Positions 5,402 to 63,555 of a stretch of DNA of 64,000 nt are shown here, piece after piece (the first letter of the stretch is position 1; each line of letters opens with the position of its first letter). A model generated the notes under the pieces. The model did no database searches. It was not told the DNA's origin and saw only the letters and a list, made by a program, of their open reading frames with translations. This DNA is from Minisyncoccota bacterium (GTDB lineage Bacteria; Patescibacteriota; Minisyncoccia; Phycocordibacterales; UBA9973). The stretch is from assembly GCA_041659785.1 (NCBI GenBank), contig JBAZXO010000001.1, positions 19,795 to 83,794 on the forward strand, read 5' to 3'. The translations under genes and the position numbers were made by a program.

Positions 5402-5483
5402 TGCCCGGAGTGGGAGTCGAACCCACATCCCTTACGAGACACGATTTTAAGTCGTGCGCGTATACCAATTCCGCCATCCGGGC
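5402..5483 (-). tRNA. tRNA-Leu (anticodon TAA), long variable arm
   Basis: Reverse complement GCCCGGATGGCGGAATTGGTATACGCGCACGACTTAAAATCGTGTCTCGTAAGGGATGTGGGTTCGACTCCCACTCCGGGCA. Confidence 0.85.
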
Positions 5484-5514
5484 AATTTCTAAAATATTCT
5501 AACATATTTTAGTG

Positions 5515-5586
5515 AGGCCTGGGGCGGAATCGAACCGCCGTATATTCCTTTTGCAGAGGAATGCCTTACCACTTGGCTACCAGGCC
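5515..5586 (-). tRNA. tRNA-Cys (anticodon GCA)
   Basis: Reverse complement GGCCTGGTAGCCAAGTGGTAAGGCATTCCTCTGCAAAAGGAATATACGGCGGTTCGATTCCGCCCCAGGCCT. Confidence 0.85.
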
Positions 5587-8035: not shown

Positions 8036-9334
8036 ATGCTCAAATCAAACTTGTCCCGCCGTGGCGGGGTAAAAGGATCAAATAAAATATATCTAGATTA
8101 TGCTGCGAGTGTAGAAGCGAATCCTAGTTCGATACATTCATTTGGCGTAGATGCAAAAATAAAACTTCAAAATGCGCGAAAAGAAGTAGCGAGTGTTTTA
8201 GGCTCTAGACCTGAAGAAATAATTTTTACGAGCGGTGGCACAGAAAGCAACAACCTTGCGATACAAGGAGTTGTTTGGTCAATTATTGAAATGCACACAT
8301 ATTCGCCTGTTGGCGAATTGCTCTGCTCGGCTCGTCAGCCCGCGCAAGGCATTTCAAAAACTACCAAACAACTCCTTCCACACATTATAACCACAAACAT
8401 AGAACATCCCTCAGTACTTGAGACTTTTAAATTATTAGAAAAAAGAAAACTCGCACAAATTTCTATAGTAGAAGTTGAAGCAAATGGGATAGTGGATCCA
8501 AAGAAAATAAAAAAAGAAATAAAGGAAAACACAATACTTGTTTCGGTTATGTATGCAAATAATGAAATAGGCACGATTCAGCCAATTCGTGAGATAGCAA
8601 AAGAGATTAGGCATTTTAAGAAAATAAAGGAAATCAATTTTTTCTCAGGTCCTCGGAAAAAATCCCCAGACCGTTCAAAAAAATTATTCCCTTCATTTTC
8701 TTTCCCGTTATTCCACACTGATGCAGTGCAAGCAGTTAATTATTTAGACCTTAATGTAGAAAGGCTCGGTGTGGATTTGCTTTCATTATCTGGCTCAAAA
8801 ATTGAGGGAGGAGGCAAAGTAGGAGTTCTTTATAAAAGAAAAATAGTTAAACTTGCAAATGTATATGGTGGAGGGGATCAAGAAATGGGATTACGTCCAG
8901 GGACAGAAAATTTATCAGAAATTTTGAAATTTTCTAGCGCATTAAAATTAGCGCAAGATATTAAAGAAAAAGAAAGTAAACGATTAACAAAACTTCGTGA
9001 TTATTTTTTTAGAGCCGTAGCGGGTAAGGCAATAATTAACGGTGATCTAAAAAATAGATTACCAAATAATGTGAATATAACGTTTCCAAAAATTCCAAGC
9101 GACCTTTTGGTTATTGAACTTTCTGCGAAAGGTATCATGGCATCTTCGAAAAGCGCTTGCAAAAGTTCCAGCTCAGAAGGTTCATATGTCATAAAAGCAA
9201 TACACCCAGAGATAGATAGAGAGATAGGCGGACTTCGTTTTTCGATGGGCAGAAAGACTACAAAGAAAGATATCGACTATACAATTAAAGTTTTATCTCA
9301 TATTTTGACAAAACTAAAAAAATGGTATGATTAG
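8036..9334 (+). CDS. cysteine desulfurase / class-V aminotransferase (IscS/NifS-like) with lineage-specific insertions
   Basis: IYLDYAAS N-terminus, ..TTNIEHPSVLE.., the PLP-lysine motif SLSGSKI, GLRPGTEN. A GC-rich mini-palindrome sits at codons 5-12 (8049-8069). Confidence 0.8.
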   Translation: MLKSNLSRRGGVKGSNKIYLDYAASVEANPSSIHSFGVDAKIKLQNARKEVASVLGSRPEEIIFTSGGTESNNLAIQGVVWSIIEMHTYSPVGELLCSARQPAQGISKTTKQLLPHIITTNIEHPSVLETFKLLEKRKLAQISIVEVEANGIVDPKKIKKEIKENTILVSVMYANNEIGTIQPIREIAKEIRHFKKIKEINFFSGPRKKSPDRSKKLFPSFSFPLFHTDAVQAVNYLDLNVERLGVDLLSLSGSKIEGGGKVGVLYKRKIVKLANVYGGGDQEMGLRPGTENLSEILKFSSALKLAQDIKEKESKRLTKLRDYFFRAVAGKAIINGDLKNRLPNNVNITFPKIPSDLLVIELSAKGIMASSKSACKSSSSEGSYVIKAIHPEIDREIGGLRFSMGRKTTKKDIDYTIKVLSHILTKLKKWYD

Positions 9335-12878: not shown

Positions 12879-12961
12879 TGCGTCGGGAAGGATTCGAACC
12901 TTCGTAGCCCGAAGGCGACAGATTTACAGTCTGTTGTAATTGACCACTCTACCACCGACGC
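12879..12961 (-). tRNA. tRNA-Tyr (anticodon GTA), long variable arm
   Basis: Reverse complement GCGTCGGTGGTAGAGTGGTCAATTACAACAGACTGTAAATCTGTCGCCTTCGGGCTACGAAGGTTCGAATCCTTCCCGACGCA. Confidence 0.8.
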
Positions 12962-17146: not shown

Positions 17147-17167
17147 CCCACGCCACGGCGGGGCAAG
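17147..17167. repeat. family A mini-palindrome (reverse orientation) between the typA stop and the next start codon
   Basis: cccacgccacggcggggcaag, then aaaattt, then ATG at 17175. Confidence 0.7.
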
Positions 17168-21225: not shown

Positions 21226-22470
21226 ATGAAGAAGAAAGTTGTTTTTGTCGGTATATCAGGAGGCGTAGATAGCGCTGTTTCAGCCGCAATGCTTAAAAAG
21301 CAGGGTTTTGACGTGGTGGGAGTTTTTATTAAAACTTGGCATCCAGATTTTCTAGAGTGTAATGAAGAAGATGAGCGTCGTGATGCTATGCGTGTGGCAG
21401 CTTTTTTAGATATTCCTTTTCTTACTTTTGATTTTGAAGATGTTTATAAAAAAGAAGTAGCTGACTATATGATAAGTGAATATAAGCTGGGGCGAACACC
21501 AAATCCAGATGTGATGTGCAACAAGGAAGTGAAGTTCGGCGCATTTCTTAAAAAAGCTCTTTCAATGGGTGCAGACTTTGTGGCGACTGGACATTATGCG
21601 GAGAATGGCGAGGTAAAAGTTGATTTTTTGAGTGGTGACGTTGCGAAGCAGGATATTCCTGAAAAAAAACAATTTTTACATCGCCAGCAAGACAAAACAA
21701 ATCATGCTTTTCTCAACCTGCCTGCTAAAGCAACGTCGGTATTCGAAAAACATAATTTGTTTTGTCTTAAAAAAGGTGTAGATTCATCCAAAGATCAAAG
21801 TTATTTTTTATGGACACTTAGACAAGAACAATTGAAGAAAATTTTATTTCCAATAGGGCATCTCAAAAAGACAGAAGTAAGAAAACTTGCTAAGAAATTT
21901 AGTCTTCCTGTAGCAGAGAAAAAGGATAGTCAAGGTATATGTTTTTTAGGAGCAGTAGATTTGAAAGATTTTTTGAAGCACTATATTAAAGTAAAAAAAG
22001 GAAAAGTTGAGAATGAAAAAGGGGAAGTAATTGGGCATCATGATGGGGCAGTTTTTTATACTTTAGGGGAAAGGCATGGTTTTACAATCACACAAAAAAC
22101 ACCGAAAGATGGTGCATATTACATAGTGGGTAAAGATATAAATAAAAATATTTTATATGTGTCACAAAATCCTCTCCCCAACCCCTCTCCATTAGTAACT
22201 AATGGAGAGGGGCGAAGGGGTGAGGCAATTAAAATTATTAATACAAATTGGATTTCAGAAGTTCCAGAAATTCACCCCGCCGATGGCGGGGCAAGTAAAA
22301 ACTATACTGCGCAGATTCGTTACCATAGTGAATTTTTGCCTTGCAAAATTAAAGTTCTTTCTAAGAATAAAGCTGAAATAATTTTTACAAAAACAATCTT
22401 GGTTGCTTCTGGCCAATCCATCGTGGTCTACGATGGTGATATTTGCTTGGGTGGTGGAGTAGTTGTATAA
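21226..22470 (+). CDS. mnmA: tRNA-specific 2-thiouridylase MnmA, carrying lineage-specific in-frame insertions
   Basis: VFVGISGGVDSAVSAAML PP-loop; ..ATGHYA..; KDQSYFLW. 414 aa against a typical ~360. Confidence 0.85.
   Translation: MKKKVVFVGISGGVDSAVSAAMLKKQGFDVVGVFIKTWHPDFLECNEEDERRDAMRVAAFLDIPFLTFDFEDVYKKEVADYMISEYKLGRTPNPDVMCNKEVKFGAFLKKALSMGADFVATGHYAENGEVKVDFLSGDVAKQDIPEKKQFLHRQQDKTNHAFLNLPAKATSVFEKHNLFCLKKGVDSSKDQSYFLWTLRQEQLKKILFPIGHLKKTEVRKLAKKFSLPVAEKKDSQGICFLGAVDLKDFLKHYIKVKKGKVENEKGEVIGHHDGAVFYTLGERHGFTITQKTPKDGAYYIVGKDINKNILYVSQNPLPNPSPLVTNGEGRRGEAIKIINTNWISEVPEIHPADGGASKNYTAQIRYHSEFLPCKIKVLSKNKAEIIFTKTILVASGQSIVVYDGDICLGGGVVV
22171..22295. repeat. two different GC palindromic elements inserted in-frame in mnmA: family C at 22171-22225 and family A at 22275-22295
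   Basis: cccctctccattagt-a-actaatggagagggg is a perfect 15-bp inverted repeat, followed by gaaggggtgagg. Then ccccgccgatggcggggcaag. They encode NPSPLVTNGEGRRGEA and HPADGGASK. Confidence 0.8.
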
Positions 22471-22948: not shown

Positions 22949-24596
22949 AATTAGATCAAAATTTCTAAAATTTTTTGAAAATCGAGGACATAAAATAATT
23001 CCTTCTTCTTCGTTGATACCCAATGACCCTTCAGTGCTTTTCACAACAGCTGGAATGCAGCAGTTTAAACCTTATTATACCAATCCACAAAATGCTGATA
23101 AAGATTTTGGTAATAGAAATATTACAACAGCTCAGAAATGTATTCGTACCGGTGACATAGAAGAAGTCGGTGATGCTACGCATCTGACTTTTTTTGAAAT
23201 GCTTGGGAACTTTTCTTTTGGTGGCTATGGTAGACGTGAGGCTATTACTTATGCATATGATTTTATTGTTAAAGAATTAGGTTTGGAAATTTCTTATGTA
23301 ACTGTTTATAAAGGTGAGGGGATAGTTCCCAAGGATGATGAATCGCGCGCTGTTTGGGAAGAGTTAGGAGTGAAGGATATTCGTTTAGATGGTCATGATG
23401 TTTTTTGGGGGCCGACAGGAGACTCTGGGCCATGCGGACCAACAACAGAGATTTATTGCAAAAATGCAGATGGGGTTGATGTAGAAATTTGGAATATTGT
23501 TTTTAATGAATATTTTTGTGACAATTCTCGTGAAAAATTAGATAAAGGACAAGCTAATCTAAAAAAATTAGATGTTTTAGGCATAGATACAGGTATGGGG
23601 TTAGAACGCTTGCTTGCAACTGTTCAGAAAAGGAAAAATGTTTACGAAACAGATGTTTTTAATAATGAACAAACAAAAGAAGAAAGAATAGTTGCAGATC
23701 ATATAAAAGCGTCCCTTTTCATGATTTCAGATGGAGTAGTTCCATCAAATACTGGAGCTGGATATGTATTACGAAGATTAATAAGACGAGCAGTTAGATT
23801 TTCTAAACAGCCTCTGTCACAAGAAATAGAAAAAATAAAAAAAATTTACGAAGGAGTTTATGTTCTTGATGATAAGGGAGAAATAGAAAATGAAGAAAAA
23901 AAGTTTAGACATACGCTTGAGCATGGATTAAAAGAATTTGAAAAGGGGATAGATCCATTCGTTTTGGCTACTACTTATGGTTTTCCAATAGAACTTACTC
24001 TTGAGTTAGCAAAAGAAAAAGGACAGACGATTGACCTAGAAGAATTTCATAAAAAGATGGCAGAACATCAGAAATTATCGCAGACTTCATCCGCCGGTAT
24101 GTTTAAGGGTGGGCTTGCAAATCATAATGAAAAAACAATCAGACTTCACACTGCACACCATTTATTGCTTGCTGGACTTCAGGCAGTTGTAGATAAAAAT
24201 ATAAAACAACGAGGAAGTAACATCACCGAAGAGCGTTTACGTATGGATTTCTTGTGTGATCATAAATTAACTGATGAAGAAAAACAAAAAGTGGAAATCT
24301 GGGTCAATGAAAAAATTTCTGAAGGTTTAAATGTTGTTCGCAAAGAGATGCCCTTGGTTGAGGCAGAAAAGCTCGGCGCAGAAATGGAATTTGGTGCTAA
24401 ATATCCAGATATCGTATCTTTATATTTTATAGAAGAACCCGCCAAGGACGGGTCAGGTAAAAATGTTAATGTAATATCTAAAGAATTTTGTGGTGGACCA
24501 CATGTAAATAACACTAAAGAATTGGGTAAATTTAAAATTCAAAAAGAAGAAGCTGTAGCTGCTGGCATTAGACGCATCAAGGCAGTACTGGAATAA
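22935..24596 (+). CDS. alaS: alanyl-tRNA synthetase, compact form (catalytic + editing HxxxH/CxxxH motifs; no long C-terminal extension)
   Basis: FTTAGMQQFKPYY, HLTFFEMLGNFSFGGY, GPCGPTTEIY, editing-site HTAHHLL and CGGPHV. Only 553 aa. Confidence 0.8.
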   Translation: MESNEIRSKFLKFFENRGHKIIPSSSLIPNDPSVLFTTAGMQQFKPYYTNPQNADKDFGNRNITTAQKCIRTGDIEEVGDATHLTFFEMLGNFSFGGYGRREAITYAYDFIVKELGLEISYVTVYKGEGIVPKDDESRAVWEELGVKDIRLDGHDVFWGPTGDSGPCGPTTEIYCKNADGVDVEIWNIVFNEYFCDNSREKLDKGQANLKKLDVLGIDTGMGLERLLATVQKRKNVYETDVFNNEQTKEERIVADHIKASLFMISDGVVPSNTGAGYVLRRLIRRAVRFSKQPLSQEIEKIKKIYEGVYVLDDKGEIENEEKKFRHTLEHGLKEFEKGIDPFVLATTYGFPIELTLELAKEKGQTIDLEEFHKKMAEHQKLSQTSSAGMFKGGLANHNEKTIRLHTAHHLLLAGLQAVVDKNIKQRGSNITEERLRMDFLCDHKLTDEEKQKVEIWVNEKISEGLNVVRKEMPLVEAEKLGAEMEFGAKYPDIVSLYFIEEPAKDGSGKNVNVISKEFCGGPHVNNTKELGKFKIQKEEAVAAGIRRIKAVLE

Positions 24597-24625: not shown

Positions 24626-25099
24626 CCTCACCCCTGCCCCCTCTCCAGAATACTGGCGAGGGGTAAATGCAACATACTAAGTGTGCTATATTTTAAGTAA
24701 TGGTTATATTAAAAACAATAATTAAAGCAAGATATTTAAGGAAAGAAGAAACTAAAACAGAACAAATACTTTGGGAGAAACTTAGAAATAATAATCTTGG
24801 TATGAAATGGAGAAGACAGCATCCTTTGGATATGTTTATCCTTGATTTTTACGCACCTAAAATAAAACTCGCGATAGAATTAGACGGTTCTATTCATAAT
24901 ATAAAAGAAAATAAAGAATATGATAAAGATAGAACAGATTATTTGAAATCTAAAGATATACAAGTTCTGAGATTTTGGAATTCTGAAGTAGAAAAAGATT
25001 TAGAAAACGTTTTAAATAAAATAAAAGAAAAAACAAAAGAACTTTTATAAGTTTGTATTTTTCCCCTCTCTGGTACTCCGGAGAGGGGAAGGGGTGAGG
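24626..25099. mobile_element. candidate miniature cassette: a DUF559 gene bracketed by inverted copies of the family C GC palindromic element, with 10-bp terminal inverted repeats CCTCACCCCT / AGGGGTGAGG
   Basis: Left element 24626-24664 (cctcacccctgccccctctcc..gcgaggggt). Right element 25063-25099 (cccctctctggtactccggagaggggaaggggtgagg). The two ends are exact reverse complements. Confidence 0.5.
24700..25050 (+). CDS. DUF559 (Vsr-like PD-(D/E)xK endonuclease-fold) domain protein
   Basis: ARYLRKEETKTEQILWEKLRNNNLGMKWRRQHPLDMFILDFYAPKIKLAIELDGSIH..VLRFWNSEV matches the DUF559 consensus. Confidence 0.7.
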   Translation: MVILKTIIKARYLRKEETKTEQILWEKLRNNNLGMKWRRQHPLDMFILDFYAPKIKLAIELDGSIHNIKENKEYDKDRTDYLKSKDIQVLRFWNSEVEKDLENVLNKIKEKTKELL

Positions 25100-30786: not shown

Positions 30787-30808
30787 CTTTTCCCGCCAGG
30801 GGCGGATA
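30787..30808. repeat. GC mini-palindrome (tcccgcc-aggg-gcgga, then taaata) 13 nt upstream of the rpoA ATG
   Basis: cttttcccgccaggggcggata resembles 1453-1470 (tttccgccaaaggcggata). Confidence 0.65.
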
Positions 30809-32586: not shown

Positions 32587-32625
32587 TAATACTTGCCCCG
32601 CCATGGCGGAGTGAAGATAAAGAAA

Positions 32626-33101: not shown

Positions 33102-33740
33102 ATGGTAGATAAAGAAGAAAAGAAACTTGCCCCGTCCAAAGGCGGGGATAATGAAATTCCTACAGAGGGAGATACTTCCGAGGTTCTTGAATTTGAGTTC
33201 AACGAAGACGGGGAAGAAGATTTAAAGAAAACTCTAAAGAAATTTAGAGCGGACATAAAAGAACTCAAGAAAGAAAACTACGAGCTTAACGCCACAAGTA
33301 TTGAGTATCTTACTGGCTGGCAGAAAGAGCGAGCAGAATTCGCAAATTATAGAAAACAAGAAGATGAAAGAAAAGCAATCTTTTCCGAAGCGATGCGTGA
33401 GAGAATACTTACTCGTTTTTTGACCGTCTCTGATAGCTTCAACATGGCTTTCGCAAACAAAGAGGCTTGGGAAAAAGTCGATGATAATTGGCGTAAAGGT
33501 GTGGAATATATTTATGCTCAGATGAATGGAATATTTGAAGAATATGGAGTGAAACCCGTAGGTGAAGTAGGTGAGAGTTTTGACCCCAATATTCATCAAT
33601 CTGTCGATGTTGTAGAAACAGACAAAAAAGAACTAGAACACAAGGTGGCAACTGTGATACAAAAAGGCTATAAATTAGGCGAGCGCGTCATGCGTCCAGC
33701 TAGGGTAAATGTGTACGAGTTCAAAGAAAAAGTAGTATAA
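33102..33740 (+). CDS. grpE: nucleotide exchange factor GrpE (the N-terminal tail contains an in-frame family A palindrome)
   Basis: C-terminal ..KVATVIQKGYKLGERVMRPARVNV..; the element at 33126-33147 encodes KKLAPSKGGDNE. Confidence 0.85.
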   Translation: MVDKEEKKLAPSKGGDNEIPTEGDTSEVLEFEFNEDGEEDLKKTLKKFRADIKELKKENYELNATSIEYLTGWQKERAEFANYRKQEDERKAIFSEAMRERILTRFLTVSDSFNMAFANKEAWEKVDDNWRKGVEYIYAQMNGIFEEYGVKPVGEVGESFDPNIHQSVDVVETDKKELEHKVATVIQKGYKLGERVMRPARVNVYEFKEKVV

Positions 33741-37930: not shown

Positions 37931-40072
37931 ATGGACTTGCCAGAAATACCTATAAATAAAGATGTTACCTATCTGGGTCTTACTACTTTTCGTGACAAAA
38001 ATCAGCTCTTCGGCATAAAGCGCAAGGACAGACGCCAGCATGTTTATATTCTCGGAAAGTCAGGTACGGGTAAATCTGTGCTCATGTTCAACATGATTAT
38101 TCAGAACATCCAGAATGGCGAAGGTGTCTGCGTAGTTGACCCGCACGGAGAGCTCGTAGAAGGAGTCTTGTCGGCTATTCCACCGGAACGTATTAAAGAT
38201 GTAGTTTATTTCAACCCTGCTGATGCCGATCACCATATTGGTTTCAACGTTTTAGAATTAATTGATCCTCAATACAAACATCTCGTGGCTTCAGGGCTCA
38301 TGGGTATTTTCACTAAAATTTGGGCGAATGCATGGAGTGCCCGAATGGAATATATTTTAAACAATTGTATTTTAGCTTTGCTCGATACTCCAGGTACGAC
38401 ACTGCTCGGCATTCCTAGAATGCTCGTCGATAAAGATTATCGCCAGAAAATAATTGCGAATTTAAAAGACCCAGTTATTAAGGCTTTCTGGATTCACGAG
38501 TATGAAGCTTGGCAAGATAAATTTAGAAATGAAGCGATCGCTCCGATTCAAAACAAAGTCGGGCAATTTCTCTCTACATCCATCATCCGCAATGTCGTCG
38601 GTCAATCTTTAAGTACTATAAATATTTTCGACATCATGAATGATGGGAAGATTTTCCTCGTAAACGTTTCGAAAGGGCGCATCGGTGAAGATAACTCTGG
38701 CCTCCTAGGAGGAATGATCATTACCAAAATTCAGCTCGCTGCGATGGAGCGTGTTCGTATTCCGGAAGATCATCGTAAAGACTTTTACCTATATGTCGAC
38801 GAATTCCAGAATTTCGTGACGGACGCTTTTGCAGGTATTTTGTCTGAGGCTAGAAAATACAGATTGAACCTTACTGTTGCCCACCAATACACTGCCCAGC
38901 TCGTCGTGGACAAGAGTTCTGCCGTGCGAGATGCTGTCTTTGGAAACGTGGGTACGATGATTGTCTTTCGTGTTGGCTCTGATGATGCAGACTTCTTGGA
39001 AAAAGAATTTGATCCAGAATTTACTCCTTCGGACATTGTTAATTTGCCGAATTATAAAATTTATTTGAAATTAATGATAGATGGAGTTACGTCTAGACCT
39101 TTTTCTGCGAAGACACTTCCACCTATGGTTAAGTCCGGTGATAAAAAAGTAGAAGAAGCAGTTATCAAATCTTCTCGTGAACTTTATTGTAGACCCAAGG
39201 AATTAGTAGAAAGAGAAATTAATGACTGGAGCGGAATGTCACTTGGGAATTATAGTGAATCAGGAGGGGGAGCGGGTATGGAGAAATTCCCAGTTATCTG
39301 TTCACTTTGTAAACTAGAAAAGACTGTACCTTTCAAGCCAGAGCCAGGCAGAGCTGTTTATTGTAAGGAATGTATTGCAAAAATAAAATCCGGAGAGGTA
39401 AAGGTAGAGAAAAAAGGACAAGATCAAATAAATTACGATGAATCTAAATTTTTTAAACCGTTAGCTGATTTAGGTATAGAATTTCAACCAAAGAATGTAA
39501 AAGTTGAAGAAGAAAACAGATATCCTGAGAGAGTAGAGAAACATACTTCAGCACCAACAAAACCTTCTTCTGTGCCAAAACCATATATTTCTGCAAATAA
39601 ACCCTCCTCTTCGGCGGGCAGGCCAGGAATTATGGGGGCAATTAAAAAAGTTTTTGTTCCCACTCCAAAGGTAAACCAAAATAAAGCTGAGGCTCCTAAA
39701 AAAATAGATAATTCAGCACTTAGGGAAGTTTTAAATAAAACTTTACATAGTGAACAGGCGAGCCCGGTGATTCCAACTCCAGCACCAGTCAAGACTCCTG
39801 TGCCAGAGCCTGTTTCTCTTGATTCCTTAAAAGATAAAATAAAAGAAGAAGATAAAAAACTTGCCCGTCCATCTGGTGGAAATTTTTCATCATACAATGA
39901 TCGTTCTGCTGGCGCAGATGAGATGAATAAATTGAAAAATTTGATTTCAGAAAAAATTGAAACTAAAAAAGAAGAAGTAGCTCCAGCTCCAGCTCCAACA
40001 CCAATTCCGATACCTCAAAAACCAGCAACAAAAGAAGTACCTGAAGATGTTTTAAGAAAAGTTTTAGAATAA
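37931..40072 (+). CDS. VirD4/TraD/TraG-family type IV coupling-protein-like P-loop ATPase with a C-terminal CxxC..CxxC zinc ribbon and a P/K/A-rich low-complexity tail
   Basis: Walker A YILGKSGTGKS, VVDPHGE, Walker B FYLYVDEFQNF, ARKYRLNLTVAHQYTAQL and FGNVGTMIVFRVG (TraG-D_C-like). CSLCKLEK...CKECI ribbon. Confidence 0.6.
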   Translation: MDLPEIPINKDVTYLGLTTFRDKNQLFGIKRKDRRQHVYILGKSGTGKSVLMFNMIIQNIQNGEGVCVVDPHGELVEGVLSAIPPERIKDVVYFNPADADHHIGFNVLELIDPQYKHLVASGLMGIFTKIWANAWSARMEYILNNCILALLDTPGTTLLGIPRMLVDKDYRQKIIANLKDPVIKAFWIHEYEAWQDKFRNEAIAPIQNKVGQFLSTSIIRNVVGQSLSTINIFDIMNDGKIFLVNVSKGRIGEDNSGLLGGMIITKIQLAAMERVRIPEDHRKDFYLYVDEFQNFVTDAFAGILSEARKYRLNLTVAHQYTAQLVVDKSSAVRDAVFGNVGTMIVFRVGSDDADFLEKEFDPEFTPSDIVNLPNYKIYLKLMIDGVTSRPFSAKTLPPMVKSGDKKVEEAVIKSSRELYCRPKELVEREINDWSGMSLGNYSESGGGAGMEKFPVICSLCKLEKTVPFKPEPGRAVYCKECIAKIKSGEVKVEKKGQDQINYDESKFFKPLADLGIEFQPKNVKVEEENRYPERVEKHTSAPTKPSSVPKPYISANKPSSSAGRPGIMGAIKKVFVPTPKVNQNKAEAPKKIDNSALREVLNKTLHSEQASPVIPTPAPVKTPVPEPVSLDSLKDKIKEEDKKLARPSGGNFSSYNDRSAGADEMNKLKNLISEKIETKKEEVAPAPAPTPIPIPQKPATKEVPEDVLRKVLE

Positions 40073-40075
40073 TAT

Positions 40076-41539
40076 ATGGCAAAGTCTAATAGAGTACAGA
40101 TAATAAAATATGCTCCGCCACCACCAGAATTACCAGTCTTCGGAAAGGTAAAGCCAGAAGATGTGTCTTTTATTGGGCGGACAAATTATGTAGCTTCTCT
40201 AGAAGAAAAGAAGTTTGTTTTCGGCATCAAGAGAGTAGACCGCCGAAGACATCTTTATATTATCGGAAAGTCCGGAGTCGGTAAGACGAAATTGCTCGAG
40301 CTTTTTATACGTCAAGATGTTTCTTATAATCATGGATTGTGTTTGATCGATCCACACGGAGACGTCATAGATTCCATGCTTGATTATATTCCTAAAGATC
40401 GTATCGAAGATGTTTGCATTATAGATCCTTCTGATATTGATTTTCCGGCTTCTTTCAACCCACTAGCGAACGTGGACCCAATGTTTAAGTTTCAGCTCAC
40501 TCAAGGCCTCATTGAAGTTTTCCAGAAACAATTCGGAGCAAATTGGACGCCTCGTCTAGAACACGTTTTTCGTTTTACTTGTTTAGCACTCCTAGATTAT
40601 CCTCATGCCACGATGCGTGGAATGATTTCAATGCTTACTGACAGAAATTACAGACAGAAAGTCGTGGAATACATTACAGACGACATGGTGAAGAGATTCT
40701 TCGCTATTGAGTTCGCAGACTGGTCTGAGAAATTCGATACAGACGCTATCATTCCACTTGTAAACAAACTCGGTCAATTCCTCTCAGACCCACTTCTCCG
40801 AAATATTTTCGGACAGAAGCAAAACAAAATAGATATCACTAAATTAATGAATGAAGGGAAAATAATCCTTATCAATCTTTCTAAAGGGCGCCTTGGTGAA
40901 GAAAATTCTTCTTTTCTTGGTTCTATATTTTTAACAAAAATAAAACAAGCTGGTATGGAGCGTGCTGCTATTCCTGAACAAGATCGTAACGACTTTTATC
41001 TCTATGTGGATGAGTTCCAAAACGTCGTGACACAGACCTTCGAAAATATTTTATCAGAAGCTAGAAAATATGGCTTGAATTTAACAATTGCCCATCAGTA
41101 TGTGGGACAGATTTTACCTAAAGTGCATCAGGCCGTGCTCGGAAATGTCGGAAGTGTAATTTGTTTCCGTGTCGGCGGTGAAGATGCTGTAAAACTAAAG
41201 CCAGAATTCGCACCCGTTTTCGACGTAAAGGATATGATCAACCTTGCTGTAGCAGAATTTTATATAAAAATGACGATTGATGGGGAGTCTTATGACCCAT
41301 TTTCTGCAGAGACTCTACGTGTATTACCACCAACTCATCCTTCATACAGGCAAGAGATTATAGACGCATCTCGCAGAAAATATTCGATACCCAAGGATGA
41401 TGCAGCGACGCTTATAGCTGAAGAAGAAGCTACAATTATTCGAAGTGTAGAAGAAAAAGCGATAATTGAAGGTAAGACAAAAAGAAAAGATAGAGAAGAT
41501 AATTCAGAAACTTCCCAAGAAGGGGAGCCTATGATATAG
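40076..41539 (+). CDS. second VirD4/TraD-family coupling-protein-like ATPase (shorter tandem paralog)
   Basis: YIIGKSGVGKT, LIDPHGD, FYLYVDEFQNV, ARKYGLNLTIAHQYVGQI. Roughly 40% identical to the upstream paralog. Confidence 0.6.
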   Translation: MAKSNRVQIIKYAPPPPELPVFGKVKPEDVSFIGRTNYVASLEEKKFVFGIKRVDRRRHLYIIGKSGVGKTKLLELFIRQDVSYNHGLCLIDPHGDVIDSMLDYIPKDRIEDVCIIDPSDIDFPASFNPLANVDPMFKFQLTQGLIEVFQKQFGANWTPRLEHVFRFTCLALLDYPHATMRGMISMLTDRNYRQKVVEYITDDMVKRFFAIEFADWSEKFDTDAIIPLVNKLGQFLSDPLLRNIFGQKQNKIDITKLMNEGKIILINLSKGRLGEENSSFLGSIFLTKIKQAGMERAAIPEQDRNDFYLYVDEFQNVVTQTFENILSEARKYGLNLTIAHQYVGQILPKVHQAVLGNVGSVICFRVGGEDAVKLKPEFAPVFDVKDMINLAVAEFYIKMTIDGESYDPFSAETLRVLPPTHPSYRQEIIDASRRKYSIPKDDAATLIAEEEATIIRSVEEKAIIEGKTKRKDREDNSETSQEGEPMI

Positions 41540-43972: not shown

Positions 43973-45409
43973 TTAAATCTTAGAAATCTTTTGCCCCATG
44001 TTTGTATCCTTAACTTCATAACCCAGAGAATTTATTTTTTCTCGAAGCTCATCGGACTTTTTAAAATCTTTATCCTTGCGAGCTTGTTCGCGTTCTTCGG
44101 CTAGCTTTTTTACTTCTTCAGGAATTACGTCTTCCTTTAAGTGTTCGAAGCCTAACCCTAACACTTTATCGAAGTCTAAAATTGTAGCTTTCTTGTCGGC
44201 GTCTGACATGTTTTCATCTTTAAAAACATCCCACAATAATGCTAAAGCCCTAGGGGTGTCTAGGTCGTCTTCTATGTATTCTTTAAACTTATTTTGGTAT
44301 TCCTTATGTACATGGCCCACTTGCCCCGTCCTTGGCGGGGACTCATTTGCCCCCGCCTCAGGCGGGACAAGAAGCCCTAAATAAAGGCCATAAAGGCGTT
44401 TTAAGGCTGTTTCAGCGCCCTCGAGTGCTTCCCATACAAAGTTGACTTTAGTACGATAGCTAGCCATTAAAAGCCAAAAACGATAGGTTATAGGGTTTAT
44501 GTTTTTTTCAATTAAACTTTCCAATCTTAAAAAATTATTTGCTGATTTAGACATTTTCTCGTTACCTGTATCAACAAATTCACTATGCATCCAGAATTTA
44601 ACAAAAGGCTTTTTACCAGTAGCGCATTCTGATTGAGCTATTTCATTTGTGTGATGTGTAGGTATAAGATCAATGCCCCCTGTGTGAATATCAAATTGTT
44701 CACCAAGAAATTTTAGACCCATAGCAGAACATTCAATGTGCCATCCCGGAAAACCAATTCCGAAAGGGGATTCAAAACCAATTTTATTATCAGTCTTCCA
44801 CAATGCGAAATCTTCAGGATTTATTTTTTCAGAATTTTCTGTTACCCTAGCTCCTTCTTTGTTCCAGTCCCTTTTACCACTCCAAAGTGCTCCATAGTCA
44901 GGCATTTTAGAAACATTGAAATATATTCCATCACTTGTTTTATATGTGTATCCTTTTTCTGTTAGTTTTTGGATTAATTCAATGTCTTCTTTAACATAAT
45001 CGCTTGCAAAATATAAACCTGAAGGCATTTCGATATTAAGGGCTTGTAAATCTTTTTTAAAACTTTCAGTATAAAATTCTGCAAGCTCACGCATGTTTTT
45101 TAGCGTTAATTCTTTTCCTTCTCGCAAAAGTCCCTTGGTCATTTTATCTTCACCAGAATCAGCATCACTTGAAAGATGCCCGATGTCAGTGATGTTCATG
45201 ACTTGCTTTACTATAAATCCTTCATATTGAAGAGTGCGATGTACCAAGTCGGCAAAAAAGAAAGAACGCAAATTACCTATATGGGTATAGTTATAAACTG
45301 TTGGGCCACAGGTATACATTCGTACCTCCTTCGGATCTATGGGGGTAAAAATGTCTTTTTCTTTAGTTAGAGTGTTGTAAAATTTTAAAGCCATTTTATT
45401 TAAATTCAC
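43973..45409 (-). CDS. cysS: cysteinyl-tRNA synthetase carrying an in-frame double GC-palindrome insertion
   Basis: MYTCGPTVYNYTHIGNLR (HIGH), KMSKS, zinc-binding Cys/His residues. The insertion encodes ..VPPEAGANESPPRTGQVGH. Confidence 0.9.
   Translation of the reverse strand: MNLNKMALKFYNTLTKEKDIFTPIDPKEVRMYTCGPTVYNYTHIGNLRSFFFADLVHRTLQYEGFIVKQVMNITDIGHLSSDADSGEDKMTKGLLREGKELTLKNMRELAEFYTESFKKDLQALNIEMPSGLYFASDYVKEDIELIQKLTEKGYTYKTSDGIYFNVSKMPDYGALWSGKRDWNKEGARVTENSEKINPEDFALWKTDNKIGFESPFGIGFPGWHIECSAMGLKFLGEQFDIHTGGIDLIPTHHTNEIAQSECATGKKPFVKFWMHSEFVDTGNEKMSKSANNFLRLESLIEKNINPITYRFWLLMASYRTKVNFVWEALEGAETALKRLYGLYLGLLVPPEAGANESPPRTGQVGHVHKEYQNKFKEYIEDDLDTPRALALLWDVFKDENMSDADKKATILDFDKVLGLGFEHLKEDVIPEEVKKLAEEREQARKDKDFKKSDELREKINSLGYEVKDTNMGQKISKI
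44320..44371. repeat. composite of two adjacent family A palindromes inside cysS
   Basis: cttgccccgtccttggcgggg + actcatttg + cccccgcctcaggcgggacaag. The outer ends cttgcccc.../...gggacaag are themselves inverted. Confidence 0.75.
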
Positions 45410-47478: not shown

Positions 47479-47495
47479 GTTTGGTTATTATATAC

Positions 47496-47545
47496 CCCCT
47501 CCGCCTTTGGCACCTCCCCCTTATTAAGGGGGAGGAAGGGTGGGG
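47496..47545. repeat. perfect 23-nt palindrome cctcccccttattaagggggagg (family B), flanked by ccgcctttgg and an aagggtgggggtga tail, between recR and dnaB
   Basis: Read directly. Confidence 0.75.
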
Positions 47546-47550
47546 GTGAC

Positions 47551-48945
47551 TTAGAACTCATCTAAGTCACCACTAATCTTCGAAGGGGCAAATTCACTCA
47601 AGCTGCTCTTTTCGAGGTTTAAGAAGGTTGTAGTTTTTTCATCGAAGTAGAGGTCTACTTTTCCAGTTGGTCCATTTCTATGTTTCTCGATTAATATTTC
47701 TGCAATGTTTGTCTTTTCGGATTCATCTTTTCCTTTATCTTCTCGGTGAATAAACATCACGACGTCCGCGTCTTGTTCGATAGATCCTGAATCTCGAAGG
47801 TCGGAGAGTCTAGGTTTGCCACCACGAGACTCCACAGCACGAGAGAGCTGAGAAAGCGCAAGGACGGGGACATCTAATTCTTTTGCTAAAGACTTAAGAG
47901 ATCTAGAAATTTCTGTGACTTGGTTTACCATTGAGTCATAATTTTTCGAAGTAGTCATGAGCTGTAAGTAGTCGACGACGATAAGATCAAGCCCTTTTTC
48001 AGCCTTTAGTCTGCGAGAGAGAGCTTTCATTTTAACGATTGAGTTTCCAGGTTGATCGTCGATAAAGATTTGAGCTTTTGCGAGTTTGTCCAATGAATCT
48101 CGAAGTTGTGAAAATTCATGGTCTGATGATAAGCGTCCGGTACGTAAGTTCCATGCATTCACGCGTGACTCAGCAGAGAGCATTCTGTCTACGAGTTGCT
48201 GTGAAGACATTTCTAGAGAAAATATTAATATGGATTTCTCATGAAGTACTCCAGACATGCGGGCGATGTCTAGGGCGAGAGTAGTCTTACCCATACTTGG
48301 CCTTGCCGCTAAGATAATTAAGTCGGACTTTTGCAGACCAGAGAGCATCGTGTCTAATTCTTTGAAGCCAGTAGCGAGTCCGCGAAGCATGCCTTTCGTC
48401 TCGTGTAATTTTTCTAGACGTTCATAGGCTTCAGGCAGAGCATCTTTCAAGTTTACGTATTTTTGATTTTTAGGACTGGAGACCACACTAAAAATTTTCT
48501 TTTCTGCCATGTCTAAAATATCGTCCATGTGATCATCACCTTCTTCGAAAGCGAGTTCTGAGACATAGTCCGCTGCTTCGATCAAACTTCTGAGGACATA
48601 TTTTTTCTGTACTATATCTGCATAGTGTTTTATGTTTGTGGAAGAGGGGACGACGTTTACAATCTCCGCCAAATATTGATTCCCACCGACAGCTTCGAGG
48701 AGCTTCTGTTCACTTAATTTTGTAGAGAGTGAAAGCATATCTATCGGTTCATTCTTTACGGAGAGGTCAAGCATCGCTTGGAAAATTTTCTTGTGTTTTT
48801 CTACATAGAAAGAGTCTGAAGTTATCATGTCTTCAACTTCATGCATTGCATCTTTACGAAGCATGATAGAACCTAGGACAGCTTGTTCGGAGGGAATACT
48901 TTGTGGAGGGATACGTAAATTACTATTTTTTATAACTTTTACCAT
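47551..48945 (-). CDS. dnaB: replicative DNA helicase DnaB
   Basis: N-terminal DnaB domain; Walker A ARPSMGKTTLALD; H2-H4 motifs; no intein. Confidence 0.9.
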   Translation of the reverse strand: MVKVIKNSNLRIPPQSIPSEQAVLGSIMLRKDAMHEVEDMITSDSFYVEKHKKIFQAMLDLSVKNEPIDMLSLSTKLSEQKLLEAVGGNQYLAEIVNVVPSSTNIKHYADIVQKKYVLRSLIEAADYVSELAFEEGDDHMDDILDMAEKKIFSVVSSPKNQKYVNLKDALPEAYERLEKLHETKGMLRGLATGFKELDTMLSGLQKSDLIILAARPSMGKTTLALDIARMSGVLHEKSILIFSLEMSSQQLVDRMLSAESRVNAWNLRTGRLSSDHEFSQLRDSLDKLAKAQIFIDDQPGNSIVKMKALSRRLKAEKGLDLIVVDYLQLMTTSKNYDSMVNQVTEISRSLKSLAKELDVPVLALSQLSRAVESRGGKPRLSDLRDSGSIEQDADVVMFIHREDKGKDESEKTNIAEILIEKHRNGPTGKVDLYFDEKTTTFLNLEKSSLSEFAPSKISGDLDEF

Positions 48946-55344: not shown

Positions 55345-57867
55345 TTAGTCAAGTAAAGTGGAAAGGAAACTGTGGATAACTTTTTTATCTCTTTTGAGCC
55401 AAGCGATATTGCCCTCTAGTCGTTCAATAATTTGTTCAATTGCGCGCTTGGCACCTGGGGCTTCGTGGTTGGCGAAGAATTTCTTGAAATTTTTTAGATG
55501 TTTTTCCTCGCTACTGCCAGAAATTGCTTTTACGGCTCTACCCAATGTGAGCCCTCCTTCACCATATCGTGATACAAGAGTCTTCCAATTCTTTTGAATA
55601 AAATTCCACCATATATCACGGCCATGTGGGTTAGCTCCGACACCTGAAAGAATGCCCACAGTGTCTTGGATGCGGACATTTTTAGACAATGCAAATTCAC
55701 AAGCCATTTTTAGAATCTTTGGATTAGAAAAATCTCCCAGGGCATTGCCTATGCGATTTTTCTCTTCATGCAGTGTTTCTTTTTTGTATTGTTTTATTAA
55801 TATGTTGTATTCTTTTATTCCACCATGAGTGGCTACTATCGAATATACAGCACCACGGATATCTGGAGATACTTGGTGGTTTTTTTGTATTTGTGAGAAT
55901 TTCTTTCTAGCTTCAGAAATTATTTTCTTGTCTCCAGAGACACCAGCGCGAGAAAGTGCAAGTGAACGAAGAAGTGTGTCTGCATGGGTTTCATTTTCCC
56001 CGCCTTTGGACGGGGCAAGCTTTTTATCCCAGCCGAGACGCAGAGCAACAGGGGAGAATAAATCTAATACAAGTTTATCCAAATTTTCTTTTGCGGGAGT
56101 TTTTGCTATAATCTGTCCTAGTCTAGAGAGGCCTGAAGCAATTTCAACCCAGACGGTATAATTATCTTCATTTTTAAAAGCCTTTAAAAATTCTAATGCA
56201 TCTGTGGTAGGTATTGTACCAGCTTCCGCTAAAGCGAAAAGATCTCGAACGATACCAAGCCTATCTCGAGGGGAGAGTAATTTTTTAGATACTGGTTCTA
56301 TGAGTTTTTCTAAAAGCTCTTTACTATATGCTGTTCTATAAAATCCTGTTTCACAAAAATTAATTTTTAGGTAGGCTTCGCTTGAAACTACTTTTATTGG
56401 CACCTGCCAAATAGTTTTATCTTTTGCTAGAGCTTTAGACTTTGGACTTGCAAAAAACCTTTCTTGAGTTAAGGAAAGTTTATTTTTTACCATACTTGCT
56501 TTGATAACAGGGTAGCCTGGTTTAGATGTCCAATTATGCATCATTTTGGCGACTGATTTTTTAGAAACTTTTTCAAAAGCTCTCCAGAGGTCTAGTGTCT
56601 CTGTATTTTTATAGCTGTGTTTTTTTAAATAATAACGAAGTCCATCACGAAAATCTTTTTCTCCTAGGTAGTCTGCGAGCATTCGGATTATCGATGCTCC
56701 TTTTGAATAAGATACTTCGTCGAATATTTCTCCTATCTCATCTGGATGATGAACTTCCACTTCTATTGGGTGAGTACTCTTGAGTGCGTCGAGCCGCAGA
56801 GCTACACCAAGATCGCTCGTAGAGAATTGTGTCCAAATATCCCATTTTGGGAAAAGTTTATCTACTGCTAGATATTCTATATATGAAGCAAAACCTTCGT
56901 TCAGCCATAAATGTGTCCACCATTCCATCGTTACTAAATTACCGAACCATTGATGCGCTAGTTCATGTGCTACGACGAGTGCTACCCATTGTTTATTTGA
57001 TGAAGAAGAATAATTTTCATCTACCAAGAGTGCACTTTCTCTATAAGTTACGGCACCCCAATTCTCCATTGCACCTGAGGCAAAGTCTGGAATAGCTATC
57101 ATGTCTAGTCCTGGTAATGGGTAAACAATATCAAAATATTTTTCATAAAATTCGAGAGTTTTAACTGCGCATTCGAGAGCAAATTTTGCTTGATGTTTTT
57201 TACCAGGAGTTGTATACACCCGAACTTGTACACCTCTTTTTGTTTTAGATTCTAGGTATTCAAAATCACCAATAATGAATGCTAAAAGGTAAGTGGACAT
57301 TTTAGGCGTAGGGGAAAATTTAACAATTTCATATTGAGCTTCATGTTCCAATACAGATATGGGCAATGTGTTAGAAATAGCAGTTTTTCCTTTTGGAATG
57401 ACGAGAGACACATGGAAAACTGCTTTGTGTGCAGGCTCGTCGAAGCAGGGGAAAGCACGTCGTGCGTCCGTAGCTTCGAATTGTGTTGTCGCCATATGAT
57501 GCGTCTTACCATTTACTTGATATTGACTGCGATAAAAACCACGCATTTTATCATTTAATATTCCCTTAAAAACAAGGTTTAACCTTGTTTTTCTTACAGT
57601 GATTAATTGGGGAAATAAAAAAGTAGCTGTTTCTTGTTTTTTATTGTAAGTAATTTTTGCAAAAATTTTCTCTCCTCCCATCAATACATCTGCCGTATCT
57701 ATCTCAATTTCCTTTGAGTGTAGAGTTAGTGTTTTTGTATTTTTTAAAATTAAGAGATTTATTGTTTCAACACCACTAAAAGTAAAGTTCTCTAAATCTG
57801 GTTTCAGTTGGATATCATATTTTATGGGAGTAACATTTTTTGAAAGACGAACCTCTTTTTTTATCAT
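55345..57867 (-). CDS. pepN: M1-family aminopeptidase N carrying an in-frame family A palindrome
   Basis: GAMENWG; HELAHQWFGNLVTMEWWTHLWLNEGFASY (HExxH...E). The insertion encodes KKLAPSKGGENE. Confidence 0.9.
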   Translation of the reverse strand: MIKKEVRLSKNVTPIKYDIQLKPDLENFTFSGVETINLLILKNTKTLTLHSKEIEIDTADVLMGGEKIFAKITYNKKQETATFLFPQLITVRKTRLNLVFKGILNDKMRGFYRSQYQVNGKTHHMATTQFEATDARRAFPCFDEPAHKAVFHVSLVIPKGKTAISNTLPISVLEHEAQYEIVKFSPTPKMSTYLLAFIIGDFEYLESKTKRGVQVRVYTTPGKKHQAKFALECAVKTLEFYEKYFDIVYPLPGLDMIAIPDFASGAMENWGAVTYRESALLVDENYSSSSNKQWVALVVAHELAHQWFGNLVTMEWWTHLWLNEGFASYIEYLAVDKLFPKWDIWTQFSTSDLGVALRLDALKSTHPIEVEVHHPDEIGEIFDEVSYSKGASIIRMLADYLGEKDFRDGLRYYLKKHSYKNTETLDLWRAFEKVSKKSVAKMMHNWTSKPGYPVIKASMVKNKLSLTQERFFASPKSKALAKDKTIWQVPIKVVSSEAYLKINFCETGFYRTAYSKELLEKLIEPVSKKLLSPRDRLGIVRDLFALAEAGTIPTTDALEFLKAFKNEDNYTVWVEIASGLSRLGQIIAKTPAKENLDKLVLDLFSPVALRLGWDKKLAPSKGGENETHADTLLRSLALSRAGVSGDKKIISEARKKFSQIQKNHQVSPDIRGAVYSIVATHGGIKEYNILIKQYKKETLHEEKNRIGNALGDFSNPKILKMACEFALSKNVRIQDTVGILSGVGANPHGRDIWWNFIQKNWKTLVSRYGEGGLTLGRAVKAISGSSEEKHLKNFKKFFANHEAPGAKRAIEQIIERLEGNIAWLKRDKKVIHSFLSTLLD
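55987..56008. repeat. family A palindrome (reverse orientation) inside pepN, near-identical (with flanks, about 33 nt) to the grpE copy
   Basis: Reverse complement aagcttgccccgtccaaaggcggggaaaatgaa, against grpE aaacttgccccgtccaaaggcggggataatgaa. Confidence 0.8.
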
Positions 57868-62457: not shown

Positions 62458-63555
62458 ATGAAGGAAAAAAAAGTAGATAGATTTTTTCTAATAATTGTAC
62501 TTATATTACTTTTTTTTGGTGTTGCTATGTTTGTCTCAGCATCACTTGGGGTCTTGGCGAAGAATCCAGCCATTTTTTATCAAGTGATTTTTAGCCAGTT
62601 AGTCCTCGGCCTCGGCCTCGGCCTCGTTGGTATGTATTTTTGTTTTAAAATTGATTACAAACTTTTACGTAATTATTCCTTTTTAATTTTTGTGGGTTCG
62701 ATACTTTTGACTGCGGCAGTTTTCATACCATTTTTAGGATGGAGTCATGGGGGAGCGGAGAGATGGATACAAATAGGGAGATTCAATTTTCAGCCGGTAG
62801 AATTTTTAAAATTTGGTTTTGTTATTTATTTTGCAGCATGGCTGTCTTGGACAAGAAATAAAGTGCAAGATTTTAGATTTAAAATTTTGCCATTTATGGT
62901 GATGATTGTGGTCATCGCTGTTGTCTTACTCAAACAGCCAGACACAAAAAGTTTTATTTTAATTACAGTCACTGGTGTATCGATGCTTTTTTTATCGAGT
63001 GTTCCTGTTAAATATATTCTAGGCACACTATTGGGAGTGATAATATTACTCGGAACTCTCGTATTTGTTACTCCTTATTTACAACAACGTGTGAAAACTT
63101 TTATTAATCCGAGCGGGGATGCACAAGGCTCTTCTTATCAAATTCAGCAATCACTCATCGCTCTCGGATCTGGCGGAATGTTTGGTAGAGGTTTCGGCCA
63201 AAGTGTACAGAAATTTAGTTATTTGCCAGAACCACAAGGCGACTCTATTTTCGCTGTTTTAGGTGAAGAATTAGGTTTTATCGGTTCAACATTAACGATA
63301 TTTCTTTATATTCTTTTTATCTTACGCGGGTTTCGTATTGCTAGTCGTTCACCGGATTCTTTTAGTGGACTTTTGGTATATGGAATTGTTATACTTATTA
63401 CAGCACAGTCTTTTATGCACATTGCTTCTGTTACTGGAGTCTTTCCGTTGACCGGAGTTCCGCTTGTTTTTATGAGTCAGGGAGGTACTTCACTTATGGT
63501 GTATCTTATGGCAATAGGTATTGTGCTTAATATATCGAGATTTCAGCGGATATGA
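62458..63555 (+). CDS. ftsW: SEDS-family peptidoglycan glycosyltransferase FtsW/RodA
   Basis: ..GGAERWIQIGRFNFQPVEFLKFG.., 10 TM; gene order mraY-ftsW-murG. Confidence 0.8.
   Translation: MKEKKVDRFFLIIVLILLFFGVAMFVSASLGVLAKNPAIFYQVIFSQLVLGLGLGLVGMYFCFKIDYKLLRNYSFLIFVGSILLTAAVFIPFLGWSHGGAERWIQIGRFNFQPVEFLKFGFVIYFAAWLSWTRNKVQDFRFKILPFMVMIVVIAVVLLKQPDTKSFILITVTGVSMLFLSSVPVKYILGTLLGVIILLGTLVFVTPYLQQRVKTFINPSGDAQGSSYQIQQSLIALGSGGMFGRGFGQSVQKFSYLPEPQGDSIFAVLGEELGFIGSTLTIFLYILFILRGFRIASRSPDSFSGLLVYGIVILITAQSFMHIASVTGVFPLTGVPLVFMSQGGTSLMVYLMAIGIVLNISRFQRI
62604..62626. repeat. hexanucleotide SSR (cctcgg) x about 3.8 inside ftsW (encodes GLGLGLG)
   Basis: gtcctcggcctcggcctcggcctcg read directly. Confidence 0.8.

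Follow-up and report, generated by a model that had tools for sequence, protein, structure and literature searches.

The window analysed here is a stretch of 64,000 nucleotides (36.5% GC) from contig JBAZXO010000001.1 of a Minisyncoccota bacterium, and our subject is a GC-rich palindromic block at 44320–44371 within its gene for cysteinyl-tRNA synthetase (CysRS), cysS, which occupies 43973–45409 on the minus strand. The open reading frame (ORF) of this gene encodes 478 aa and its true start is probably the ATG at 45394. Pfam assigns residues 21–332 to the CysRS catalytic domain (PF01406, E = 1.4e-87) and residues 429–473 to the CysS C-terminal domain (CysS_C), the product matches a CysRS of the PDB (3sp1, E = 1.9e-93), and the closest homolog, from Candidatus Paceibacterota, is 93% identical.

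The palindromic block of cysS

The block reads cttgccccgtccttggcgggg-actcatttg-cccccgcctcaggcgggacaag and lies in frame within the cysS ORF. A repeat finder delimits two arms of 21 nt, at 44320–44340 and 44351–44371, that are 76% complementary and have 10 nt between them. Each arm taken alone folds as a DNA hairpin (-6.2 to -7.2 kcal/mol). As RNA, the arms pair together into one long hairpin of 92 nt at -52.1 kcal/mol (z = -5.4), a stability that none of 200 shuffles attains, and the same region folded as DNA gives -20.3 kcal/mol (z = -3.5). The predicted stem of about 21 bp, in RNA or DNA, that the paired inverted units would form might affect mRNA stability or translation.

Examination of the codons separates the block into two units and a piece of host sequence. 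Unit A, the first insert (44351–44371, minus strand, sense to cysS, CTTGTCCCGCCTGAGGCGGGG), reads LVPPEAG and corresponds to residues 347–353 of CysRS. The codons gca aat gag that follow (44342–44350, minus strand) encode A-N-E, residues 354–356; they align with the gga aac gag (G-N-E) of the baseline sequence and belong to the host, outside both elements. Unit B, the second insert (44320–44340, plus strand, antisense to cysS), has the sequence CTTGCCCCGTCCTTGGCGGGG, and its codon-aligned block at 44321–44341 reads SPPRTGQ, residues 357–363. The window DNA therefore runs ggg ctt / CTT GTC CCG CCT GAG GCG GGG / gca aat gag / TCC CCG CCA AGG ACG GGG CAA / gtg ggc cat, and the peptide stretch spanning the inserts is ...LGLLVPPEAGANESPPR....

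This region was compared with 120 homologs of CysRS, all from Patescibacteria, Paceibacteria or Nomurabacteria and 70–93% identical. In most of these orthologs the protein has 459 aa and an insert-free baseline loop, ...LYL-x-L-G-N-E-V-G-H..., so that GL[LVPPEAG]ANE[SPPRTGQ]VGH in the window stands against GL-GNE-VGH (insert-free DNA: gaa ctc gga aac gag gtc gga cac). The initial annotation had described two adjacent hairpins with inverted outer ends, inserted in frame downstream of the catalytic core of CysRS; the folding, the baseline loop L-G-N-E-V-G-H of the orthologs and the PF01406 match, which ends at residue 332, bear out this description, and its figure of about 17 added residues is to be corrected to 14 aa in two blocks of 7, the residues VGH being those of the host. 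An AlphaFold2 model of CysRS obtained with 46 sequences (mean predicted local distance difference test, pLDDT, of 76) places residues 346–368 between helices 326–345 and 369–379, with pLDDT below 50 at residues 350–362. According to this model, both inserts sit in a flexible inter-helix loop past the catalytic core.

Some insertion is present in this loop in about 20 of the 120 orthologs, and either unit can be found without the other. L002 (ggc ctt gga aat) and L129 have nothing inserted at the unit A site, and the first insert stands alone, at the same codon, in P0072 (L003). The second insert stands alone in P0028 and P0065 (L004), the DNA of L004/P0028 reading gag / acc ccg cca agg acg ggg cag / gtt, and P0002 (L002, 91% identical) combines an empty first site with a decayed second insert. 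Furthermore, a 24-nt variant occupies the unit A site in L128/P0024, and 24-nt relatives of the hairpin lie at three positions of the CysRS loop, in either orientation, in P0024, P0027 and P0014. Because each unit occurs alone in other orthologs, the insertions count as independent and, as read from this alignment, the cysS block is a set of two independent 21-nt (7-codon) insertions in opposite orientation that flank three host codons.

The same loop carries a different insert of 18–21 nt in the cysS gene of the closest relative (L001, 10001–11398), gtt ggc cag cct gcg cag tca, read as VGQPAQS, which may be a decayed copy of the family described below or another element.

Copies of the 21-nt repeat and their spread

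Both cysS units share one anatomy with a family of repeats, namely an unpaired CTTG tag, which varies little or not at all in alignment A1, and after it a 7-bp GC-rich stem, most often CCCCG(C/T)C...GGCGGGG, with a loop of 2–4 nt. Stem cells are paired at 91% across 19 copies, and there is little covariation since the stems are conserved in sequence. In the T variant of the stem, the tag strand has a G.T pair and folds at -6.2 kcal/mol, and the complement has an A.C mismatch and folds at -4.6 kcal/mol, energies that agree with folding of the tag strand. The two cysS units are of different subtypes (CCCGCC-TGA versus CCCCGTCC-TT).

Ten copies of the family were found in the window, against about 0 expected by chance; a strict pattern gives 4 matches and a loose one 8, where 100 dinucleotide-preserving shuffles of the window lead to an expectation of 0.00. 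They are divided into 5 on the plus and 5 on the minus strand, without strand bias, and 7 of the 10 lie inside ORFs, the coding fraction of the window being about 0.91. Besides the two cysS units, four copies are located in genes. The copy in pepN, encoding an M1 aminopeptidase (55999–56019, minus strand, sense, CTTGCCCCGTCCAAAGGCGGG), reads LAPSKGG, and that in grpE (33126–33146, plus strand, sense, residues 9–15) is the identical 21-mer. The copy in mnmA (22275–22295, minus strand, antisense, CTTGCCCCGCCATCGGCGGGG) reads HPADGGA/S, and an older, decayed one in alaS (24437–24457, minus strand, antisense, CCTGACCCGTCCTTGGCGGGT) reads PAKDGSG. Two copies are intergenic, one right after the bipA stop codon (17147–17167, minus strand, CTTGCCCCGCCGTGGCGTGGG) and one between rplM and rpsI (32592–32612, plus strand, CTTGCCCCGCCATGGCGGAGT). 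Two others are pattern matches only, at the 5' end of an ORF for a class-V aminotransferase resembling cysteine desulfurase (8050–8070, plus strand, CTTGTCCCGCCGTGGCGGGGT) and, in intergenic DNA, upstream of a type IV secretion pilin gene (1495–1514, plus strand, CTTGCCCGTCCTTTGGCGGG).

A gathering scan of the window with Rfam returned 5 tRNAs and nothing else, hence no family matching the hairpin. Intrinsic terminators were considered and set aside, the family copies being without a downstream T-run; a T-run does follow some pattern matches in viral contigs and high-GC genomes, but these seem to be fortuitous or to be terminators. Also rejected was the hairpin CCCGCCAGGGGCGG at 30790–30808, between rpsD and rpoA, which lacks the CTTG tag and is not a family member; it is 100% conserved in the relative L133.

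Another palindrome lies in frame in mnmA (22171–22227, plus strand). Of about 57 nt and unrelated to the 21-nt family, it has the sequence CCTCTCCCCAACCCCTCTCC-ATTAGTAACTAAT-GGAGAGGGGCGAAGGGGTGAGG, an RNA minimum free energy of about -39 kcal/mol and the translation NPLPNPSPLVTNGEGRRGEA. It is common to L132/P0130, and L133 has a different GC-rich insert at this place.

The pattern was scanned against 185,579 species genomes and, as its T variant, against JGI metagenomes; all counts from these scans are minimum values, and exact matches are favoured among the loci sampled. Among the genome matches listed, many are chance matches in high-GC genomes, and the AT-rich ones belong to Nomurabacteria, Paceibacterota, Minisyncoccia, Saccharibacteria, Berkelbacteria, Jacksonbacteria and Curtissbacteria. 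In the metagenomes, the T variant was matched at no fewer than 120 loci, of which at least 71 are AT-rich. After removal of sites with similar flanks, 77 non-redundant sites remain among the matches listed, of which 58 are inside ORFs of at least 100 codons (43 antisense and 15 sense) and 19 are outside a long ORF, several of these on short contigs.

AT-rich contigs contain the exact 21-mer of unit B, CTTGCCCCGTCCTTGGCGGGG, with at least 30 distinct sets of flanks, and it is in frame in IleRS, PheRS-beta, AlaRS, GatB, RecG, an ATP synthase subunit, class II aminoacyl-tRNA synthetases (aaRSs), RNase R, RF-1/2, transketolase and others. Among the matches listed, to which the frame and flank counts of this paragraph refer, 28 of 30 copies of this 21-mer use one frame (x-D-PAKDGAS-K); cysS unit B, with PPRTGQ, is one of the two in another frame, and L272 is the other. 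Sense copies of the loop-3 subtype all read (K)K-LAPSxGG-D/E (11/11). The flanks are also shared, the logo of the TT-loop subtype being TTTT[A/G]^unit^TC (n = 33), which corresponds to GA^...^TAAAA on the coding strand, and that of the loop-3 subtype AAAA[A/G]^...^GA. In L004, the unit B site of cysS agrees with GA^T, although in another phase (gaG A^TT), a hint that the DNA itself is targeted; L272, the other rare-frame copy, departs from GA^T. An identical 21-mer written in GC-rich codons within genomes of 27–45% GC indicates that the DNA is conserved and not the peptide.

Mobility, mechanism and alternative readings

The closest relative, whose CysRS is the one 93% identical, is represented by an 85-kb JGI/NCBI contig sampled as L001, L131 and L133, of which about 45 kb is syntenic with the window. 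Pairwise alignments show that 6 of the 8 window copies having a syntenic counterpart are absent from this relative, which contains about one decayed family copy in about 47 kb. Downstream of bipA, the window reads gagataa-CCCACGCCACGGCGGGGCAAG-aaaattt and L133 gagataa^aaaaaat, an exact 21-nt gap. An exact 21-nt gap in L133 also corresponds to the grpE copy (aaaaaa^gaagataat), the 21 nt of the mnmA copy are missing in L132 and L133, and about 20–21 nt are missing in L133 between rplM and rpsI, where the boundary is ambiguous. For alaS, 21 nt are missing in L133/P0145 and the insert is common to about 12 AlaRS orthologs. In pepN, L130 lacks the insert (aag aaa^aaa gat) and the closest relative (L131) holds a decayed copy of 18 nt. 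The same differences appear in the proteins, with K[LAPSKGG]ENE versus a baseline K-KNE in PepN, FIEE[PAKDGSG]KN versus FIED-KN in AlaRS, and a 7-aa gap in MnmA of P0130.

No target-site duplication was seen at any filled/empty pair, and c3, c5, c8 and c11 are exact 21-nt gaps. As the intergenic copy after bipA is also exactly 21 nt, the length seems to be the element's own, beyond selection for the reading frame; on this one clean intergenic case, 21 nt appears to be a property of the element. Old copies decay, as in alaS, in pepN of L131 and in cysS of L002. Judged on these comparisons of sequences, the family is still mobile in this Paceibacteria genome or was so until recently, and it occurs widely among Patescibacteria.

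Two AlaRS orthologs, P0173 and P0235, have a second heptapeptide inside the first, PAKD[ARLPDGQ]GSSK, and the nested ARLPDGQ would back-translate to a family-like ...GACGGGCAAG end. Nesting seems to occur in this other part of the family, the evidence being at the protein level only.

We consider it likely, and with good confidence, that two independent insertions of a 21-nt miniature palindromic repeat, in opposite orientations, have hit one permissive loop of CysRS, and that this repeat belongs to a Patescibacteria-wide family, mobile now or recently, comparable to repetitive extragenic palindromic (REP) sequences and to Rickettsia palindromic elements (RPEs). In such a scheme, 21 nt make seven codons and the GC-rich stems are free of stops, and each copy is predicted to be read as a Pro/Gly/Ala-rich heptapeptide. 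Copies would survive where the protein tolerates this heptapeptide, that is, in inter-helix loops and at N-termini. The comparisons show that insertion is precise, adding 21 nt without target-site duplication, and that it takes place in both orientations in genic as well as intergenic DNA. As for the agent, a trans-acting nuclease of the HUH type may recognise the tag-strand hairpin as single-stranded DNA and cut and paste (or copy) it. This role of an HUH nuclease is proposed by analogy, because in REPs with their REP-associated tyrosine transposases (RAYTs), in IS200/IS605 and in IS91 a conserved tetranucleotide stands next to a hairpin and the target is not duplicated; we regard it as possible but rather doubtful.

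Several points weigh against the insertion of a mobile repeat or against this mechanism, or limit them. Gain and precise loss of a copy leave the same pattern of presence and absence. Translation of the inserted codons and the retained activity of CysRS are both predicted. The flank consensus and the near-exclusive frame could stem from target specificity or, equally, from selection for Lys/Asp-rich surface loops. Furthermore, no transposase, Y1/Y2 HUH protein or relaxase was recognised by Pfam among the window ORFs of at least 90 aa (about 66 ORFs, unknowns considered at E up to 1), the window being 64 kb of a source contig of 318 kb. A tblastn search of the fetched loci with approximate RAYT and IS200 TnpA queries, which is a weak test, gave no transposase and one weak match in an Akkermansia locus, and the neighbouring ORFs that recur in the 92 listed AT-rich loci are all housekeeping genes of the host, with no transposase among them.

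The only mobile-looking nuclease gene of the window is an ORF with a DUF559 domain (Vsr-like endonuclease fold) at 24700–25050, just after alaS. It is preceded at 24626–24651 by CCTCACCCCTGCCCCCTCTCC, similar to one arm of the 57-nt palindrome of mnmA, and the gene is missing at the syntenic position in L133. It may be a separate small mobile unit and is treated here as unconnected to the 21-nt family. At 144–2253 and 37931–41539, four tandem genes for proteins resembling type IV secretion pilins and two genes for VirD4/TrwB-like coupling ATPases were also found, with no relaxase recognised nearby.

The arrangement of the two cysS units could suggest that the 52-nt block was transposed whole, as one composite element, be it a nested pair or a doublet of the REPIN kind. 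Indeed, the units are inverted, only 9 nt apart and able to form the long RNA hairpin of -52.1 kcal/mol as REPINs do (PMC3116915), and two of 10 random sites in 64 kb lie this close in only about 4.5% of trials. Such a composite is nevertheless very unlikely given that unit A is alone in P0072 and P0024, and unit B in P0028, P0065 and P0002, at the same codon positions, and that the 9-nt spacer is the host ANE, counterpart of the baseline GNE. In addition, the cysS units differ in sequence subtype, all other fresh insertions are 21-nt singlets, and among the roughly 154 AT-rich units listed 5 pairs fall within 100 nt (a neighbour at this distance for only 5 listed units), that of cysS being the only tight inverted one; its closeness is attributed to a permissive loop that was struck repeatedly in many lineages. 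The initial annotation had taken the block for a composite member of the repeat family of grpE and pepN and for a sign that the elements nest or duplicate: the kinship stands, whereas the composite gives way to two separate insertions, and nesting or duplication at cysS is contradicted by the single-insert orthologs P0072, P0028 and P0065. An ordinary, vertically inherited and lineage-specific extension of the CysRS loop under selection on the protein would agree with the variable length of this loop, which is longer in the Borrelia CysRS 3sp1, and with its occupation by some insertion in about one ortholog in six. Yet the short loop of four residues prevails in most orthologs, including those that are 80–83% identical, the same GC-rich 21-mer is found in unrelated genes and in intergenic DNA, and its codons are atypical for a genome of 36.5% GC, which leaves this explanation highly improbable. 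Less credible still, and close to negligible, is an artefact of assembly or sequencing: the source is a contig of a metagenome-assembled genome and GC-rich hairpins can trouble sequencing, but orthologous copies exist in independent JGI, ENA, NCBI and Logan assemblies (P0028 on at least 24 contigs), the reading frames are kept and decayed versions exist.

A different question is whether the hairpins are motifs selected for a benefit to the host, such as a site for the nucleoid, gyrase or another protein, a structure acting on mRNA stability or translational pausing, or a signal for DNA uptake or self-recognition. The presence of the same 21-mer across very divergent Patescibacteria is unusual for decaying junk, the RNA stem of the cysS doublet is very stable, and REPs have documented host roles (PMC3733652). 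On the other hand, the copies may follow or oppose the direction of transcription, occupy genic as well as intergenic DNA, and lie at non-homologous positions of unrelated genes; the old ones decay, the closest relative keeps the same genes without most of the copies, and no Rfam family matches. We therefore hold a host function to be improbable, if less so than the three preceding explanations, and it is compatible with mobility rather than exclusive of it.

Direct repeats of a unit with a GTA loop, 60 nt apart, are present in L197 (965–1068) and in L188 within a longer repeated block (tctctatttg...gtcattgcgag), a pattern suggestive of larger composite repeats in other lineages.

Relation to known elements, significance and other features of the window

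REPs carrying a GTAG or CGTC tag are short palindromes that are also met within genes, including those of tRNA synthetases (Di Nocera et al. 2013, PMC3733652); RAYTs cleave them at the tag, and the CGTC class is without a known transposase (PMC3733652). A RAYT gene, encoding a Y1 HUH transposase, accompanies the GTAG class only. REPs and the 21-nt unit are alike as short (20–40 bp) imperfect GC-rich stem-loops with an unpaired terminal tetranucleotide; they probably also share a dispersal in many copies, the window having 10 in 64 kb, and they have in common G.T stem pairs, occasional inverted dimers and in-frame genic copies, among others in tRNA synthetase genes. The 21-nt unit has the stem-loop of a REP, with its 7-bp stem and loop of 2–4 nt, but its tag is CTTG and not GTAG or CGTC, and CTTG has 0 occurrences in the text of PMC3733652. 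Moreover, it is mostly located in ORFs (58 of the 77 listed sites, 7 of 10 in the window), whereas REPs are for the most part extragenic and placed downstream of ORFs, it is at the small extreme of the size range, its fresh insertions are singlets and not dimers, and its hosts are Patescibacteria. In the literature searched in full text, no paper was found that links Patescibacteria or Parcubacteria with REP, REPIN or RAYT, or that describes this 21-nt element. In REPINs, replication concerns the inverted doublet with its spacer, which is over-represented and better conserved than the singlets, these being remnants in decay (Bertels & Rainey 2011, PMC3116915). The cysS pair resembles them in that two inverted REP-like units fold into one long hairpin; it differs in arising from two separate events, in a family where fresh insertions are singlets and doublets are rare.

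RPEs, reportedly described by Ogata et al. in 2000, are said to be selfish palindromic repeats inserted in frame in essential genes. RPE-1 measures about 100–150 bp, encodes about 30–50 aa and is known only from Rickettsia. RPEs resemble the 21-nt unit in that both are selfish palindromic repeats lying in frame in essential genes of a reduced AT-rich genome and tolerated in surface loops; here the genes are cysS, pepN, grpE, mnmA and alaS, with 7-aa gaps in the orthologs. In R. conorii, RPE-4 and RPE-6 have been equated with CGTC REPs (PMC3733652). However, the unit has 21 nt (7 aa) and a presumably unrelated sequence, and its size and its Paceibacteria host, of a different phylum, make membership in the RPEs implausible. 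Small dispersed repeats of cyanobacteria, reportedly studied by Elhai et al. in 2008, are said to be palindromic mobile repeats of about 21–27 nt, the nearest in size to the 21-nt unit, that can nest and are sometimes intragenic. They are set apart by their sequence and their host phylum, and no CTTG tag is known in them.

The ends of HUH transposons (IS200/IS605, IS91) likewise place a tetranucleotide beside a hairpin and, like the 21-nt unit, leave no target-site duplication. IS91 in particular has 5'-CTTG or GTTC next to subterminal palindromes and does not duplicate its target (PMC13181058). But these elements measure kilobases, differ between their two ends and encode a transposase, and their tetranucleotide belongs to the flanking target, unlike the 21-nt unit, which has the CTTG inside the inserted 21 nt. 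The family is best described as a miniature palindromic element of the REP/RPE kind, set apart by its 21-nt singlet unit, its CTTG tag, its mostly intragenic location and its identical sequence across the phylum, and it appears to be an undescribed and unusually small variant of selfish palindromic repeats.

A broader proposal, which we put forward tentatively and give rather less than even chances, brings these features together. A hairpin of 21 nt, with seven codons and stop-free stems, would be spread throughout the Patescibacteria (candidate phyla radiation, CPR), would move singly and without target duplication, would prefer sites like GA^T-AAAA, and would plant identical heptapeptides (PAKDGAS, LAPSKGG, PPRTGQ) in the loops of aminoacyl-tRNA synthetases and other essential proteins, driven by a single-strand DNA nuclease yet to be found. 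No smaller class of transposable unit would then be known, and this one would be adapted to genomes whose coding share exceeds 90%.

If the family is indeed mobile, the ultra-small and gene-dense CPR genomes are not free of selfish DNA, and host a repeat whose small size and codon neutrality suit it to essential genes. For annotation and phylogenomics, recurrent 7-aa indels at one loop in different lineages would be homoplasies and not marks of shared ancestry. For protein evolution, the copies would show, as a natural scan by loop insertion, which sites of aaRSs, PepN, GrpE, RecG and others are permissive. The filled and empty sites could serve for strain typing of uncultivated bacteria, and the 21-nt CTTG singlet would offer a sharp, testable substrate in the search for a new HUH-like or other nuclease of CPR.

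Other features of the window deserve mention. A GC-rich hairpin (-37.7 kcal/mol) lies at 47495–47551 between the dnaB stop and the recR start, and L004 and L126 conserve its core, CACCTCCCCCT...AGGGGGAGG, in the corresponding intergenic position; the hairpin may act as a terminator or have a regulatory role. The tRNA genes, all on the minus strand, comprise a cluster of four at 5023–5586 and one more at 12879–12961. Finally, a tandem hexamer, (CCTCGG)x4, is found at 62601–62633 within an FtsW/RodA-like ORF (62458–63555).

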